Shown here: positions 25,653 to 43,620 of the stretch, piece by piece
How positions within the stretch are numbered: the stretch's first letter is position 1
Layout of the letters: every line of letters begins with the position of its first letter
Source: Escherichia coli O127:H6 str. E2348/69
GTDB taxonomy: Bacteria > Pseudomonadota > Gammaproteobacteria > Enterobacterales > Enterobacteriaceae
Direction: 5' to 3' (one strand)
Assembly: GCF_000026545.1 (NCBI RefSeq)
Contig: NC_011601.1
DNA length: 64,000 bases
The notes under the pieces: model-generated
What the model saw: the letters and a program-made list of their open reading frames with translations, nothing else
Databases searched by the model: none
Told to the model about the DNA's origin: nothing
Made by a program: the position numbers and the translations under genes

Positions 25653-25735
<83 letters not shown>

Positions 25736-33777: not shown

Positions 33778-35151
33778 ATGGCACTTTGGGGCGGGCGTTT
33801 TACCCAGGCAGCAGATCAACGGTTCAAACAATTCAACGACTCACTGCGCTTTGATTACCGTCTGGCGGAGCAGGATATTGTTGGCTCTGTGGCCTGGTCC
33901 AAAGCCCTGGTAACGGTCGGCGTGTTAACCGCAGAAGAGCAGGCGCAACTGGAAGAGGCGCTGAACGTGCTGCTGGAAGATGTTCGCGCCAGGCCACAAC
34001 AAATCCTTGAAAGCGACGCCGAAGATATCCATAGCTGGGTGGAAGGCAAACTGATCGACAAAGTGGGTCAGTTAGGCAAAAAACTGCATACCGGGCGTAG
34101 CCGTAATGATCAGGTAGCAACTGACCTGAAACTGTGGTGCAAAGATACCGTTAGCGAGTTGCTGACGGCTAACCGGCAGTTACAATCCGCTCTGGTCGAG
34201 ACCGCGCAGAACAATCAGGACGCGGTGATGCCGGGTTACACTCACCTGCAACGCGCCCAGCCGGTGACGTTCGCTCACTGGTGCCTGGCCTACGTTGAGA
34301 TGCTGGCGCGTGATGAAAGCCGTTTGCAGGACGCGCTTAAGCGTCTGGATGTCAGCCCGCTAGGCTGTGGCGCACTGGCAGGAACGGCCTATGAAATCGA
34401 CCGTGAACAGTTAGCAGGCTGGCTGGGCTTTGCTTCGGCGACCCGTAACAGTCTCGACAGCGTTTCTGACCGTGACCATGTGTTGGAACTGCTTTCTGCT
34501 GCCGCTATCGGCATGGTGCATCTGTCGCGTTTTGCTGAAGATCTGATTTTCTTTAACACCGGCGAAGCGGGGTTTGTGGAGCTTTCTGACCGTGTGACTT
34601 CCGGTTCATCATTAATGCCGCAGAAGAAAAACCCGGATGCGCTGGAGCTGATTCGCGGTAAATGCGGTCGGGTGCAGGGGGCGTTAACCGGCATGATGAT
34701 GACGCTGAAAGGTTTGCCGCTGGCTTACAACAAAGATATGCAGGAAGACAAAGAAGGTCTGTTCGACGCGCTCGATACCTGGCTGGACTGCCTGCATATG
34801 GCGGCGCTGGTGCTGGACGGCATTCAGGTGAAACGTCCGCGTTGCCAGGAAGCGGCGCAGCAGGGTTACGCCAACGCTACTGAACTGGCGGATTATCTGG
34901 TGGCGAAAGGCGTACCGTTCCGCGAGGCGCACCATATTGTGGGTGAGGCGGTGGTGGAAGCCATTCGTCAGGGCAAACCGCTGGAAGATCTGCCACTCAG
35001 TGAGTTGCAGAAATTCAGCCTGGTGATTGGCGAAGATGTCTATCCGATTCTGTCGCTGCAATCGTGCCTCGACAAGCGTGCGGCAAAAGGCGGTGTCTCA
35101 CCGCAACAGGTGGCGCAGGCGATTGCTTTTGCGCAGGCACGGTTGGGGTAA
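33778..35151 (+). CDS. argH: argininosuccinate lyase
   Basis: 457-aa ORF ([44 protein letters not shown]...), fumarate-lyase family. Confidence 0.96.
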
Positions 35152-35212
35152 TTTGTTTATATTGCTCCCCTGAAAATGGGGAGCTTACCACGCTTACAAA
35201 GTGTGACACTTC

Positions 35213-35245
35213 GTAGGCGGATAAGGCGTTTACGCCGCATCAGGC
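35213..35245. repeat. REP palindromic unit downstream of argH
   Basis: GTAGGCGGATAAGGCGTTTACGCCGCATCAGGC. Confidence 0.7.
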
Positions 35246-35648
35246 AGAAATTTGTCAGTATTCTGGTGACCTTAAATTTAACGCCCAACCAGAACCATTA
35301 TTTGCCACATTCCTTTTTATTCTTGCGTCTTCTTTACCTTCACTCTCCCCATAAAAATTATATTTTCAATACATCAACCAATACATACTTTAATTAATTG
35401 AATATAATTTATTTCTATTGTTGTGTTCATTTTTAATGATTAATGGAGTTTGTTATGTGATTACTTAACGTGTTGTTTTAACGATGATGGCTAATTATTC
35501 AGGTGGTTTTTGAGGGTGTTTTTTCTCCTCGGTAGAAATTTTTATTTTTAATGTGATCACGGTTGAATAATCACCTTTTCTCTCTTGTATGGTAGTAGGC
35601 GTAAAATTAAGTTTGAAGTGTCTATTTACAATACAGGAGATTGCAATA

Positions 35649-36863
35649 ATGAAAATTATTGCTGTGGATGTTTTTGTTACTTGTCCCGGGCGTAATTTCG
35701 TTACGCTTAAAATAACCACTGAAAGCGGACTTTGTGGATTAGGAGATGCCACGTTAAATGGTCGCGAATTGTCGGTCGCTTCTTATCTGAAAGATCATCT
35801 TTGTCCTCAATTAATTGGCCGCGATGCCAGCCGTATCGAAGATATCTGGCAATTCTTTTATAAAGGAGCTTACTGGCGACGTGGTCCCGTCACGATGTCG
35901 GCCATTTCTGCCATTGATATGGCGTTGTGGGATATCAAAGCTAAAGCGGCAAATATGCCATTGTATCAACTGCTTGGTGGCGCTTCTCGTGAAGGCGTGA
36001 TGGTTTATTGCCACACCACCGGGCGGACGATTGATGAAGTCCTTGAAGACTATGCAAAGCACCAGCAGATGGGCTTTAAGGCGATTCGTGTGCAGTGTGG
36101 TGTACCGGGTATGCAAACCACCTATGGTCTGGCGAAGGGCAAAGGACTGGCGTATGAACCAGCAACCAAAGGCCTGTGGCCAGAAGAGCAGTTGTGGTCT
36201 TCAGAAAAGTATCTCGATTTTACGCCGAAGTTATTTGAAGCGGTGCGTAATAAGTTCGGTTTTAACGAACATCTGTTGCATGACATGCACCATCGCCTGA
36301 CCCCCATCGAAGCGGCACGCTTTGGGAGGAGCATTGAGGATTACCACCTGTTCTGGATGGAAGATCCGACGCCTGCCGAGAACCAGGAATGTTTTCGTCT
36401 GATTCGCCAGCATACCGTGACGCCGATTGCGGTCGGTGAAGTGTTTAACAGTATCTGGGACTGCAAGCAGTTAATCGAAGAGCAGCTGATTGACTATATT
36501 CGCACGACGATTACCCATGCAGGCGGCATTACCGGGATGCGACGGATTGCCGATTTTGCATCGCTTTATCAGGTACGTACCGGTTCGCATGGCCCTTCAG
36601 ATTTATCGCCTGTTTGTCATGCGGCGGCGCTGCATTTTGACCTCTGGGTGCCAAACTTTGGCGTTCAGGAGTACATGGGCTATTCCGAACAAATGCTTGA
36701 AGTCTTCCCGCATAGCTGGCGCTTCGATGAAGGTTATATGCACCCAGGCGATGAACCGGGGCTGGGTATTTCTTTCGATGAGAAACTGGCGGCGAAATAT
36801 CCGTATGACCCAGCGTATCTCCCCGTCGCGCGACTGGAAGACGGTACATTGTGGAACTGGTAA
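35649..36863 (+). CDS. enolase-superfamily dehydratase, D-mannonate dehydratase (ManD) / RspA-like
   Basis: ORF 35589..36863; ATG at 35649 with AGGAG RBS gives 404 aa ([60 protein letters not shown]...). Very similar to the E. coli starvation-sensing protein RspA as I recall it, but at a different locus (between argH and oxyS). Confidence 0.8.
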
Positions 36864-36929
36864 TAGCGGTTCGCTTAATTATTTTCTGAATATTCATCAA
36901 ATCGATTAATTCCGCTCAAGGAGCTAAAA

Positions 36930-38213
36930 ATGGACATTGATGTGTCAACCAGTGTTGCGGGTAATAAACCGCAACGGATTCGTCGTATTCAGACAGTGAC
37001 CTTGGTTTTATTATTTATGGCGGGGATCGTTAATTTTCTCGACCGTTCATCATTGAGCGTGGCAGGTGAAGCGATTCGTGGCGAGTTAGGATTATCGGCG
37101 ACAGAGTTTGGTGTTTTGCTTTCTGCATTTTCTCTGTCTTATGGTTTTTCACAACTTCCTTCCGGTATTTTGCTAGACCGCTTTGGCCCACGAATAGTTT
37201 TAGGCGCAGGTTTAATATTCTGGTCATTAATGCAGGCATTAACAGGAATGGTTAATTCTTTTAGCCACTTTATTTTAATGCGTATCGGTCTGGGTATTGG
37301 CGAAGCGCCATTTATGCCTGCGGGAGTAAAGTCGATCACCGACTGGTATGCGCAAAAAGAACACGGCACGGCGCTGGGGATTTTTAACTCATCTACCGTT
37401 ATCGGTCAGGCTATCGCGCCTCCTGCTCTTGTGTTGATGCAACTGGCATGGGGCTGGCGGGCAATGTTCGTCATCATCGGCGTGGCGGGGATTCTGGTTG
37501 GGATCTGTTGGTACGCGTGGTATCGCAACCGGGCGCAGTTTGTCCTGACTGACGAAGAACGGACGTATCTCTCCGCGCCGGTTAAACCGCGTCCACAGCT
37601 GCAATTTAGCGAGTGGCTGGCGCTGTTTAAGCATCGGACAACCTGGGGGATGATTTTAGGTTTCTCTGGCGTCAATTATACCGGTTGGCTCTACATCGCG
37701 TGGTTACCCGGTTATTTACAAGCCGAGCAAGGCTTCAGTCTGGCGAAAACCGGTTGGGTGGCGGCGATTCCTTTCCTCGCGGCGGCGGTCGGGATGTGGG
37801 TTAACGGTATTGTTGTCGATCGGCTGGCGAAAAAAGGCTACGACCTGGCGAAGACGCGTAAAACGGCTATTGTCTGCGGTTTGATGATGTCGGCATTAGG
37901 CACGTTGCTGGTCGTGCAATCCTCCTCGCCAGCCCAGGCGGTAGCGTTTATCTCAATGGCGCTGTTCTGCGTGCATTTCGCGGGAACATCTGCATGGGGA
38001 CTGGTGCAGGTGATGGTGTCAGAAACAAAAGTGGCTTCCATCGCCGGGATTCAAAACTTTGGCAGTTTTGTTTTTGCTTCCTTTGCTCCGATCGTAACCG
38101 GTTGGGTAGTGGATACCACGCACTCGTTTAATCTGGCGCTGGTTATCGCGGCCTGTGTGACGTTCACCGGGGCGCTGTGTTACTTCTTTATTGTCAAAGA
38201 TCGGATTGAGTAA
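36930..38213 (+). CDS. MFS transporter, anion:cation symporter (ACS) family (hexuronate/galactonate/glucarate-type)
   Basis: 427-aa ORF with AAGGAG RBS; 12-TM-like hydropathy; N-terminal FLDRSSLSVAG motif characteristic of ExuT/DgoT/GudP-type acid-sugar permeases. Confidence 0.75.
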   Translation: MDIDVSTSVAGNKPQRIRRIQTVTLVLLFMAGIVNFLDRSSLSVAGEAIRGELGLSATEFGVLLSAFSLSYGFSQLPSGILLDRFGPRIVLGAGLIFWSLMQALTGMVNSFSHFILMRIGLGIGEAPFMPAGVKSITDWYAQKEHGTALGIFNSSTVIGQAIAPPALVLMQLAWGWRAMFVIIGVAGILVGICWYAWYRNRAQFVLTDEERTYLSAPVKPRPQLQFSEWLALFKHRTTWGMILGFSGVNYTGWLYIAWLPGYLQAEQGFSLAKTGWVAAIPFLAAAVGMWVNGIVVDRLAKKGYDLAKTRKTAIVCGLMMSALGTLLVVQSSSPAQAVAFISMALFCVHFAGTSAWGLVQVMVSETKVASIAGIQNFGSFVFASFAPIVTGWVVDTTHSFNLALVIAACVTFTGALCYFFIVKDRIE

Positions 38214-38256
38214 CCGTTACTATCAGGCTCTCTTGCTGTGGGCCTGTAGAATAAAA

Positions 38257-38369
38257 AAAAGCGGATCCTGGAGATCCGCAAAAGTTCACGTTGGCTTTAG
38301 TTATTCGAGTTGAGAAACTCTCGAAACGGGCAGTGACTTCAAGGGTTAAAAGAGGTGCCGCTCCGTTTC
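38257..38369 (-). ncRNA. oxyS: OxyS small regulatory RNA
   Basis: Reverse complement of 38257-38369 reads GAAACGGAGCGGCACCTCTTTTAACCCTTGAAGTCACTGCCCGTTTCGAGAGTTTCTCAACTCGAATAACTAAAGCCAACGTGAACTTTTGCGGATCTCCAGGATCCGC plus a U-tail, matching the E. coli oxyS sequence as I recall it; divergent from oxyR. Confidence 0.85.
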
Positions 38370-41094: not shown

Positions 41095-42261
41095 ATGATC
41101 GAACACTATATTCGTGGGTTTGAGGAAGAACTTCGCGAGATCCGCCATCAGATCCACGAAAACCCGGAGCTGGGATTACAAGAATTTAAAACCAGTGCTT
41201 TGGTTGCGGAAAAGCTGCGCCAGTGGGGCTATGAGGTTGAGCAAGGGCTGGCGACAACCGGCGTGGTAGCCACGTTAAAAGTGGGCGACGGAGAGAAAAG
41301 TATTGGCCTGCGGGCGGATATGGATGCGTTGCCGATTTATGAAAATAGTGGCAAGCCCTGGGCCAGTAAACATCCTGGTTTAATGCACGCCTGCGGGCAT
41401 GACGGGCATACCACCATACTGCTGGGGGCTGCGCGTTATTTTGCCGAAACCCGCCGTTTTAACGGCACGTTACGCCTTATCTTCCAGCCTGCGGAAGAGA
41501 TGATTAACGGCGGTGAGATCATGGTTAAAGAGGGGCTTTTTGATCGTTTCCCCTGCGATGTCATTTTCGGGATGCACAACATGCCGGGTTTGCCGGTCGG
41601 CAAGTTTTTCTTCCAGCCTGGGGCGCTGATGGCGTCAATGGATCAGTTCCATATTACGGTTCGTGGTTGTGGCGGACACGGTGCGATCCCGCACAAAGCC
41701 ATCGATCCAGTGCTGGTTGCCGCACATATCACCACCGCATTACAAAGCATTGTGTCGCGCAATGTTGATCCGCTGGAAGCGGCGGTAATTACCGTCGGCA
41801 GCATTGTTGCGGGTGAGGCGGCTAACGTCATTCCTGACAGTGCTGAGATGAAAATCAGTGTCCGCTCTCTTAGCCGCGATACCCGACAACTTCTTCTGAC
41901 CCGTATTCCTGCTCTTGCACAAGCCCAGGCTGCCAGCTTTGGCGCTACGGCTGAGGTTACGCATGTTAACGGTACACCGGTATTAGTAAATGACGAGGAG
42001 ATGGCGCGCTTCGCCTGGCAGGTGGCGTGCAAAACATTTGGTGAAGATCGGGCTGAGTTTGGCATCAAACCCCTGATGGGCAGTGAAGATTTCTCTTTCA
42101 TGCTGGAAGCCCAACCCAAAGGCGGTTTCCTGTTATTCGGTAATGGCGATGTCGGGGAAGGTTCCTGCATGGTGCATAACCCCGGTTACGACTTTAACGA
42201 TGCAAGCCTGGTCCCGGCAAGCAGCTACTGGGGCGCACTGGTTGAAGCCTGGCTGCAATAA
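41095..42261 (+). CDS. M20D-family amidohydrolase (aminoacylase / hippurate hydrolase-like)
   Basis: 388-aa ORF with the HACGHDGH metal-binding motif and overall M20D architecture; preceded by about 300 bp of very AT-rich DNA. Confidence 0.75.
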   Translation: MIEHYIRGFEEELREIRHQIHENPELGLQEFKTSALVAEKLRQWGYEVEQGLATTGVVATLKVGDGEKSIGLRADMDALPIYENSGKPWASKHPGLMHACGHDGHTTILLGAARYFAETRRFNGTLRLIFQPAEEMINGGEIMVKEGLFDRFPCDVIFGMHNMPGLPVGKFFFQPGALMASMDQFHITVRGCGGHGAIPHKAIDPVLVAAHITTALQSIVSRNVDPLEAAVITVGSIVAGEAANVIPDSAEMKISVRSLSRDTRQLLLTRIPALAQAQAASFGATAEVTHVNGTPVLVNDEEMARFAWQVACKTFGEDRAEFGIKPLMGSEDFSFMLEAQPKGGFLLFGNGDVGEGSCMVHNPGYDFNDASLVPASSYWGALVEAWLQ

Positions 42262-42303
42262 ATAAAACAACACACAACAACACTTTTTGGCAAGGAACAT
42301 GGA

Positions 42304-43620
42304 ATGACGGCGATCGTAAATGAAACCGTGAGTGTGAAGAAAAAGCCCAGCGGCAGGCGGGTGATCTTTGCCTCGGCGTTTGGCAATGCGCTCGAATTTT
42401 TTGATTTTGGCGTCTACAACTTTTTTGTGGTCTATATCAGTACGCTTTTCTTCCCACCCAGTGCCGATCATAACGTCGCGCTGTTACTGGCATTTGCAAC
42501 GTTTGGTGTGAGCTTTTTTATGCGTCCGCTCGGTGGGATTATCGTTGGTGCCTGGGCCGATCGCTTCGGGCGTAAACCGGCGATGGTGTTCACTATTGCT
42601 CTGATGAGCCTCGGTACGCTGATGATCGGCATCGCACCGACGTATGAAACGGCGGGCTATTGGGGAACCGCAACGCTGGTGCTGGCGCGTCTAATTCAGG
42701 GTGTTGCGGCAGGTGGTGAAGTCGGGGCTTCAATGTCGCTACTGGTGGAGTCAGCTCCGGCAAATCGTCGCGGCTTTTACAGCAGTTGGTCACTGGCGAC
42801 TCAAGGCCTGGCAACAACTTTTGGCGGTGTTGTCGCTTTAGGTTTAAGCGCATGGCTACCGTTCGCCACAGGTTCAGAAACCGTAATGGCAGAATGGGGC
42901 TGGCGTGTGCCGTTTTTTATTGGCGTGTTATTAGCACCTATCGGTTGCTGGTTGCGTCTGAGCCTGGAAAATGACGTACCTGAGCCAGTGCGCAATAAAA
43001 AAGCTGCTACCAGCGAAAGCGCGTTTTCTCTGCTCCTGCAACATAAGGCGACTATCGTTAATGGCGTTTTACTCGCTATTGGTAGCACGGTAGCAACCTA
43101 TATTTCCCTCTTTTACTATGGCACATGGGCGGCGAAGTATCTGGCAATGCCTCAACACTATTCTCATGCAGCGATGTTACTGGCGGGGGTAATTACGTTT
43201 GTGGGCGCGCTGTTGGTGGGGATGCTATGTGATTCGGTTGGGCGTAAAAAGCTGATTTTAATCTCCCGTGTGATGGTGCTTCTCTGTAGCTGGCCGTCAT
43301 TCTGGCTGTTGGTGAATTACCCAAGCCCTGGCATGTTGCTGACGGTGGTTTTCGTGATGGTCAGCTTTACCACGCTTGGCGGTGTGCCAGTGATGTTGTT
43401 GATCTCTGAACTGTTGCCGAAACGGATTCGGGCATTAGGTTTCGCGCTGGTTTATAGCATTGGCGTAGCAATCTTTGGCGGTTTTGCGCAATATTTCGCC
43501 ACGCAATCCATCGTGTTGCTGGATAGTCTGACGGCTCCGGCGTGGTATCTGGGTGGAGGCACGTTGCTGTCGATGCTGGCGTTGTTGTACGTAAAAGAAC
43601 CGGCCAAAGAATTGCAGTAA
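42304..43620 (+). CDS. MFS transporter, metabolite:H+ symporter (MHS) family
   Basis: 438-aa ORF; MHS signature [10 protein letters not shown] in the loop 2-3 region; 12-TM-like hydropathy; 42 bp downstream of the amidohydrolase, likely co-transcribed. Confidence 0.75.

Follow-up and report, generated by a model that had tools for sequence, protein, structure and literature searches.

Here we examined the DNA between argH and oxyS of Escherichia coli O127:H6 strain E2348/69, within a window of 64,000 nucleotides of contig NC_011601.1 (assembly GCF_000026545.1) to which all positions refer unless another sequence is named. The argH stop codon directly precedes a variable segment with two genes, which the RefSeq annotation already names 'manD' and 'MFS transporter' (Table 1). 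The probable relation of this gene pair to the rsp locus is the subject of this report. Upstream of the segment argC, argB and argH follow one another on the plus strand. Downstream is OxyS (Rfam RF00035; 139.5 bits, gathering score 75), and beyond it oxyR and then sthA. In K-12 MG1655 the argH-oxyS gap is a spacer of 54 bp which includes its own canonical argH terminator. Compared with K-12, E2348/69 is divergent at 35152-38252 and the sequence match restarts at 38253. A local BLAST of the K-12 spacer against the E2348/69 segment found no homology. This ruled out that the spacer is a deletion remnant of the segment. The initial annotation of this stretch had reported the segment as absent from K-12, and MG1655 indeed has just the spacer there. 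Its coordinates and its description of the elements were also borne out, i.e. every element was found where it had been placed.

Table 1. Features of the argH-oxyS interval in E2348/69.
Feature	Position	Strand	Remarks
argH	33778-35151	+	
Hairpin GCTCCCC-tgaaaa-TGGGGAGC	35164-35184	+	read from the sequence; just 3' of the argH stop
Repetitive extragenic palindromic (REP) unit	about 35213-35249		exact 23-mer repeated in the window
AT-rich upstream leader	35260-35551	+	low G+C, less conserved than the promoter core
CRP-like site	35549-35570	+	perfect left half TGTGATC (35552-35558), poor right half
RspR-operator-like element	35581-35598	+	overlaps the -35-like TTGTAT (35585-35590)
-10-like hexamer TAAGTT	35608-35613	+	17 nt past TTGTAT; assigned by homology
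manD, rspA paralogue	35649-36863	+	404 residues; enolase-superfamily enzyme of the D-mannonate dehydratase subgroup
ACS-family (DgoT-type) MFS permease, putative acid-sugar:H+ symporter	36930-38213	+	427 residues; AAGGAG Shine-Dalgarno sequence; 66 bp past manD
Right junction: A8 run and OxyS terminator hairpin	38253-38279		match to K-12 restarts
OxyS	38260-38369	-	

The ATG at 35649 was taken as the start of manD in preference to the upstream ATG at 35589: it is preceded by the Shine-Dalgarno sequence AGGAG, lets the model match run over the full length and agrees with RefSeq. ManD scored 731.3 bits with the NCBIfam ManD equivalog model NF043051 (cutoff 550), residues 1-404 aligning with positions 1-403 of 403. 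It is 91.1% identical to K-12 RspA, which has the same length. Both results agree with the first description of the protein as an RspA/ManD-like dehydratase of the enolase superfamily. The closest solved structure is that of the CFT073 RspA (PDB 4IL2; E = 3.9e-269, 896 bits), and a second solved relative is the Pectobacterium ManD (4E4F). Solved chains from other bacteria that are annotated as D-mannonate dehydratases reached about 600-640 bits, below the 896 bits of 4IL2. Residues R147, Y159, D212, H214, E238 and E264 were invariant in 16 ManD/RspA sequences including ManD itself, and H314 was likewise conserved. In the roles and numbering of the Novosphingobium ManD, Arg147 and Tyr159 are the base dyad, Asp212, Glu238 and Glu264 the metal ligands and a His the acid. 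All catalytic residues are intact in the ManD alignment. By similarity ManD would be active on D-mannonate and/or D-gluconate.

ManD is a paralogue distinct from RspA. All RspA orthologues fall into one clade, with 93-98% identity among them, and ManD branches outside it. Ten substitutions are fixed in the ManD clade, two of which, Q156 and L161, flank the catalytic Y159. Synonymous sites between manD and rspA are saturated (proportion of synonymous differences, pS, 0.72). Therefore, the duplication is old. RspA, a low-efficiency member of the ManD subgroup in E. coli, shares with ManD the metal ligands, the Tyr-Arg dyad, the His acid and the promoter architecture. Unlike RspA, ManD is situated between argH and oxyS and not between ynfA and rspB, and it is followed by a transporter and not by RspB. 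In comparisons with CFT073, E. whittamii and Escherichia sp. E1V33 the ratios of non-synonymous to synonymous substitution rates (dN/dS) were 0.017-0.040 for manD and 0.019-0.046 for the permease gene. Thus, purifying selection is strong on both, and at ratios of 0.017-0.046 they are real genes and not chance open reading frames.

The two genes probably constitute one operon. The permease aligned with TIGR00893 ('2A0114 D-galactonate transporter') from position 2 to 399 of 399 (E = 7.8e-81), with 272 bits and thus under the curated cutoff of 395 bits. Its closest solved relative is DgoT (6E9N, E = 1.8e-56, full-length alignment). The sequence LDRSS in the permease lines up with VDRAN in DgoT, and GIGEAP with GIFEAP. 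The Asp-Arg pair of the first helix and the Glu of GEAP line up with residues which serve DgoT in proton coupling and carboxylate binding. The initial annotation had named an ACS-family permease of the ExuT/DgoT/GudP type, and this identity was borne out as DgoT-type. The permease is about one third identical to DgoT, a D-galactonate:H+ symporter (TC 2.A.1.14; 6E9N, 6E9O), yet its genomic context is rsp, not dgo. From this context, L-gulonate or D-mannonate are the most likely substrates and D-gluconate is a possible one.

The link to rsp emerged from gene order. In nine other enterobacterial genera an orthologue of the transporter, 82-89% identical, is located within the rsp locus and adjoins rspA. 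Among these genera are Enterobacter, Pluralibacter, Raoultella, Klebsiella, Citrobacter (sp. 18056), Lelliottia, Siccibacter and Atlantibacter. The order is ynfA, the MFS gene and rspA (either one first), rspB, ydfJ and ydfI, then rspR, ydfG and dcp, and a check showed these neighbours to be orthologous to their K-12 counterparts. The K-12 rsp locus is the same without this transporter. Because the gene adjoins rspA in nine genera, the permease may be linked to the substrates of the rsp system. Each genome in the scan had a single copy of the transporter, either at rsp or at argH. Escherichia has two dehydratases, RspA and the ManD of the argH locus. Co-localisation with rspR and rspA holds for the transporter in the other genera, not in Escherichia with its detached operon. 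The rspR gene was present in 5416 of 5426 complete E. coli genomes, and rspAB in at least 4922. E2348/69 itself possesses rspA, rspB and ydfI (PMC3891560).

Some further features of the rsp loci were observed. The K-12 locus is split by the Qin prophage between rspB and ydfJ (L024, 12278-32746). In E2348/69 it is apparently uninterrupted, judged by the consecutive run of locus tags with ydfI (1662), rspB (1664) and rspA (1665). Some rsp loci in Enterobacter, Pluralibacter, Raoultella and Atlantibacter (L006, L007, L011, L012) additionally contain a uxaC-like glucuronate isomerase gene and a GPH-family transporter gene of the glucuronide type; from their gene content these loci could serve an alternative glucuronate or glucuronide route too. 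The record CACSKA010000003.1 (L009), titled 'Chryseobacterium sp. 18061', contains an enterobacterial rsp locus near-identical to that of Citrobacter sp. 18056 (RspA 98.5%). This assembly is probably mislabelled or contaminated.

The promoter region of manD tells the same story as the gene order. It has the architecture of the K-12 rspA promoter: TGTGATC, 26 nt, CTTGTATGGTAGTAG (35584-35598) and a -10-like hexamer. The sequence CTTGTATGGTAG (35584-35595) is identical in the K-12 rspA promoter and occurs only once in the window. We aligned 17 promoters from nine genera, i.e. regions upstream of rspA, the transporter or manD. TGTGA and CTTGTATGGTAG were invariant throughout. K-12 rspA and most of the other aligned promoters share with manD the spacing of 26 nt from TGTGA to TTGTAT. 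CTTGTATGGTAG is also located 5' of ydfI in Lelliottia and Raoultella and 5' of a lone MFS gene in Shimwellia. As synonymous sites between manD and rspA have reached saturation, the persistence of these elements implies that the regulatory sites are under selection.

In K-12, RspR (YdfH) represses the rspA promoter and protects 31 bp centred on ATACnnGTAT, as reported by Shimada et al., and the rspA transcript starts 30 bp 5' of the ATG (PMC8249747). The invariant promoter elements overlap the position of this operator and footprint. The hexamer TAAGTT aligns with TAGATT which precedes the mapped rspA start. Placing that start on the alignment would put TTGTAT at -35 and TGTGA near -61, the class I position of CRP. 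The rspA-type promoter was not picked up in a scan for consensus promoters; the manD promoter was assigned by its homology to the mapped promoter of rspA. RspR and CRP may bind at this promoter. Of the RspR box, the right half and the adjoining GGTAGTAG agree with rspA in every base, but the left half, TCTC, matches ATAC at only one of four positions. A similar deviation is seen in the transporter promoters of the other genera (TTCTTGTAT). With the rsp locus and the RspR regulon the manD promoter has in common a CRP half-site, a -35 region resembling the RspR operator and a -10 region. Unlike the rsp locus, the Escherichia pair is detached and variably present, and the ATAC half is not conserved.

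Upstream of the promoter the sequence is less constrained. The G+C content was 26-37% across 35200-35700 in 200-nt windows. Identity to E. whittamii was 78-90% over 35252-35551 versus 96% in the promoter core. Among Escherichia species the roughly 100 bp 5' of manD are the best-kept part of the leader (94-96%); farther upstream identity was 78-86%. The initial annotation had described about 390 bp of very AT-rich DNA in front of manD. The low G+C content stands. The view of an anonymous spacer does not, since the last 100 bp or so are a conserved promoter. One block farther upstream, TAACGTGTTGTTTTAA at 35466-35481, is conserved from E. coli to Citrobacter sp. R56. Only argH-type loci have it; it was absent from the rsp-locus promoters of the other genera. 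We compared the block by eye with the CRP consensus and with the operator consensus sequences of KdgR and UxuR/ExuR and found a half-site match at best.

The left end of the segment has features of its own. The hairpin behind argH is kept in CFT073, O103:H2, E. whittamii and E1V33 and is specific to the allele that bears the gene pair; the terminator of K-12 at this place differs and is canonical. The 23-mer of the REP unit, GGATAAGGCGTTTACGCCGCATC at 35219-35241, has a second exact copy on the minus strand at 25657-25679. The REP stretch (query 56-98) gave a short match at a different site of another E. coli genome. The match to Rfam naRNA4 over 35215-35295 was weak and sub-threshold.

In about 200 E. 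coli genomes a 9-kb gene cluster takes the place of the leader left of about 35445 (window 35152-35444). An example is L028, 6961-16027, from E. coli 15.TR.026_OXA, where argH is on one side of the cluster and the manD leader on the other. Its genes are for an araD-like epimerase, a DeoR regulator, an ABC sugar transporter, an L-ribulose-5-phosphate 3-epimerase and an FGGY kinase, and from these it looks like a pathway of the L-xylulose or pentitol type. As this cluster entered the same gap next to argH, the gap is a site of repeated gene gain.

How is the segment distributed? At least 80% of it was present in 1860 of the 5426 complete E. coli genomes (34%), always on the chromosome. The contiguous K-12-type site, argH-spacer-oxyS, was found in 3553. 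Together these leave 13 genomes. Thus, the pair is not universal in E. coli; universal presence would have refuted the initial view. Carriers include CFT073 and O103:H2; the K-12-type site is present in O157:H7 and in K-12 derivatives. In the ST131 strain EC958 the locus tags of argH and oxyR are consecutive, which suggests that the pair is absent (PMC10936160). Outside E. coli the layout argH-manD-MFS-oxyR was found in E. whittamii and in two further Escherichia species. A scan for the transporter gave no match in representative genomes of E. coli and of its other named relatives. In Citrobacter sp. R56 the argH-oxyR interval contains a homologous leader, an intact promoter of the rsp type, a decayed manD with a large internal deletion and an intact transporter gene. 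The manD remnant (L019, 7694-7885) joins the first 30 or so codons in frame to about the last 15, giving an open reading frame of 63 codons.

The initial annotation had called the segment an insertion. The data do not support this. We found no insertion sequence (IS), integrase, tRNA or flanking repeats at the segment, and it was never located on a plasmid. A mobile-element origin was ruled out on account of the missing mobility genes and flanking repeats. The coding G+C content of about 50% is typical of the host. In synonymous divergence (dS) from E. whittamii, manD stood at 0.377 and the MFS gene at 0.258; in the flanks argH, oxyR and sthA gave 0.312, 0.288 and 0.414. These values are concordant. 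Therefore, the pair diverged at the pace of the core genes on either side. Flank-like dS values, the shared site in three Escherichia species, the Citrobacter sp. R56 locus and the missing mobility signature together identify the segment, as judged from sequence comparison, as an old resident allele, one of two in E. coli. K-12 represents the other allele, which has an unrelated spacer of its own and is not simply an empty site.

A second polymorphism was noticed nearby. The sthA-fabR gap (41095-43620) contains two more genes which are absent from K-12, one of the M20 aminoacylase family (41095-42261) and one annotated as 'citrate-proton symporter' of the MFS (42304-43620). E2348/69, CFT073, E. 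whittamii and E1V33 have these genes and O103:H2 lacks them. Because O103:H2 has only manD-MFS, the two polymorphisms are independent.

How, then, may the manD-MFS operon operate? The initial annotation had stressed that no dedicated regulator or partner dehydrogenase is present. This is correct in cis. It is incorrect if taken to mean that the pair is an orphan, considering the rspA-type promoter and the location of the transporter in the rsp locus elsewhere. From these two findings we conclude that RspR, CRP, RspB and YdfI are probably supplied in trans. The reading which we favour, with some reserve, is that the operon is a detached satellite of the rsp system (rspR, rspA, rspB, ydfJ, ydfI) with its regulator and its partners encoded elsewhere. 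The DgoT-type permease would bring in a hexonate together with protons. If this were L-gulonate, RspB, a Zn-dependent dehydrogenase, and YdfI, of the fructuronate reductase family, could convert it via D-fructuronate to D-mannonate. ManD would dehydrate D-mannonate to 2-keto-3-deoxy-gluconate, which the core enzymes KdgK and Eda would pass on to central metabolism. The rspA-type promoter would be activated by CRP under carbon limitation and repressed in trans by the core GntR-family regulator RspR. Co-operation with RspB and YdfI in such a route would fit the L-gulonate pathway of Haemophilus influenzae, for which conversion of L-gulonate via D-fructuronate and D-mannonate to 2-keto-3-deoxy-gluconate was demonstrated (PMC5788505). 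The same chemical logic as with GulD, UxuB and UxuA in H. influenzae is available here via an RspB-type, a YdfI-type and a mannonate dehydratase enzyme. There, however, uptake is by a TRAP transporter and UxuA or ManD is encoded in the cluster; here an MFS permease is located far from the dehydrogenases and L-gulonate is a putative substrate. Chromohalobacter salexigens is a second host of an L-gulonate pathway.

Several points weigh against a satellite of the rsp system. The right half of the CRP-like site is poor. With TCTC in place of ATAC in the left half of the operator, the affinity for RspR may be low or absent. In work from 2014, Wichelecki and co-workers reportedly characterised RspA-type enzymes as of low efficiency, and the true substrate may differ. 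They are also said to have termed the L-gulonate pathway of CFT073 'cryptic'. As CFT073 carries the transporter, it can be argued that the transporter is insufficient for growth on L-gulonate. Finally, there are expression data from E2348/69. In a microarray the 'predicted transporter' E2348C_4274, which is probably the permease gene of the pair, was up 2-fold with Ler in mid-log phase; rspA, rspB and ydfI were down 2-3-fold with Ler in late log phase (PMC3891560). With these opposite responses the microarray shows no co-regulation with rsp. Activation by Ler is compatible with silencing of the AT-rich leader by H-NS, a point which the initial annotation had raised.

The rival view, which follows the initial annotation, is that the pair is a self-contained scavenging unit, which takes up D-mannonate or D-gluconate and converts it to 2-keto-3-deoxy-gluconate under control of CRP and H-NS without a link to rsp. 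Chemically the pair is sufficient, as KdgK and Eda belong to the core. The degenerate left half of the RspR box, a leader with 26-37% G+C and the 2-fold rise of the probable transporter gene with Ler, an H-NS antagonist, are all in line with it, and the genes are separable, as the transporter of Citrobacter sp. R56 has outlasted its manD. Yet such a unit does not account for twelve invariant bases over the RspR footprint and a fixed spacing to TGTGA that were kept through saturated divergence. Nor does it explain why the transporter orthologue is inside the rsp locus of nine genera and why CTTGTATGGTAG is also placed 5' of ydfI. We consider this explanation unlikely, though it is the strongest competitor of the rsp satellite.

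A redundant low-efficiency dehydratase and a transporter which drift to loss without a role are distinctly improbable. Such an evolutionary relic would agree with the 3553 of 5426 genomes that lack the pair, with the internal deletion of manD in Citrobacter sp. R56, and with the shorter ManD entries from Shigella flexneri (385 residues, and 399 residues marked partial). UxuA already performs mannonate dehydration in E. coli, so the same chemistry is covered. Wichelecki and co-workers reportedly raised the idea of a relic for those members of the ManD subgroup that have low efficiency. Against it stand the dN/dS of 0.017-0.046 in both genes at dS of up to about 0.38, the complete set of catalytic residues and a promoter core that is 94-96% identical among Escherichia species versus 78-86% in the leader. 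A recent islet, i.e. a horizontal insertion into an ancestrally K-12-like argH-oxyS spacer, could explain the patchy occurrence in E. coli and the genus (only three Escherichia species representatives carry the pair besides E. coli strains), the AT-rich edge and the entry of the 9-kb island into the same gap in about 200 genomes, but it is hardly tenable with no integrase, IS, tRNA or flanking repeats, no plasmid-borne copy, a coding G+C of about 50%, dS values of the pair (0.377, 0.258) comparable to the flank bracket of 0.288-0.414, an occupied locus in Citrobacter sp. R56 and a K-12 spacer of unrelated sequence which is not a target site.

The right junction deserves a comment. No intrinsic terminator was found on the plus strand between the permease stop codon and oxyS (38214-38300). 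Two hairpins in this interval are followed by A-rich, not U-rich, sequence, and the OxyS terminator scored only on the minus strand. Therefore, transcripts of the operon might run antisense through oxyS toward oxyR. If so, availability of an acid sugar would be coupled to an oxidative-stress locus. This belongs to a wider proposal, for which we claim only a minor chance: in the third of E. coli that carries the operon, e.g. the B2 pathogens CFT073 and E2348/69 and Shiga-toxin producers of O103:H2, RspR would control this operon as well, the permease would be the missing uptake step which decides from strain to strain on use of the otherwise 'cryptic' rsp pathway for L-gulonate or a related hexonate, and antisense read-through into oxyS/oxyR would possibly occur.

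In the searchable literature there is no prior description of the manD-MFS locus; its only trace is E2348C_4274 in the table of the Ler microarray. The genes themselves were already annotated. New are the age of the operon, its distribution as one of two alleles and its membership in the rsp system at the level of promoter and synteny. In other respects the locus is part of the ordinary accessory metabolism of carbohydrates. Work in K-12, a strain without the manD-MFS operon, had placed RspR among the single-target regulators (PMC8249747). Our data suggest that regulon maps drawn from K-12 miss targets in many pathogenic lineages. For the RspA-type dehydratases there are solved structures and weak measured activities, and a physiological role is still missing. 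A member of this family with its own transporter, a strain-variable presence and an rspA-type promoter may thus provide a natural experiment on the real acid sugar of the rsp system.

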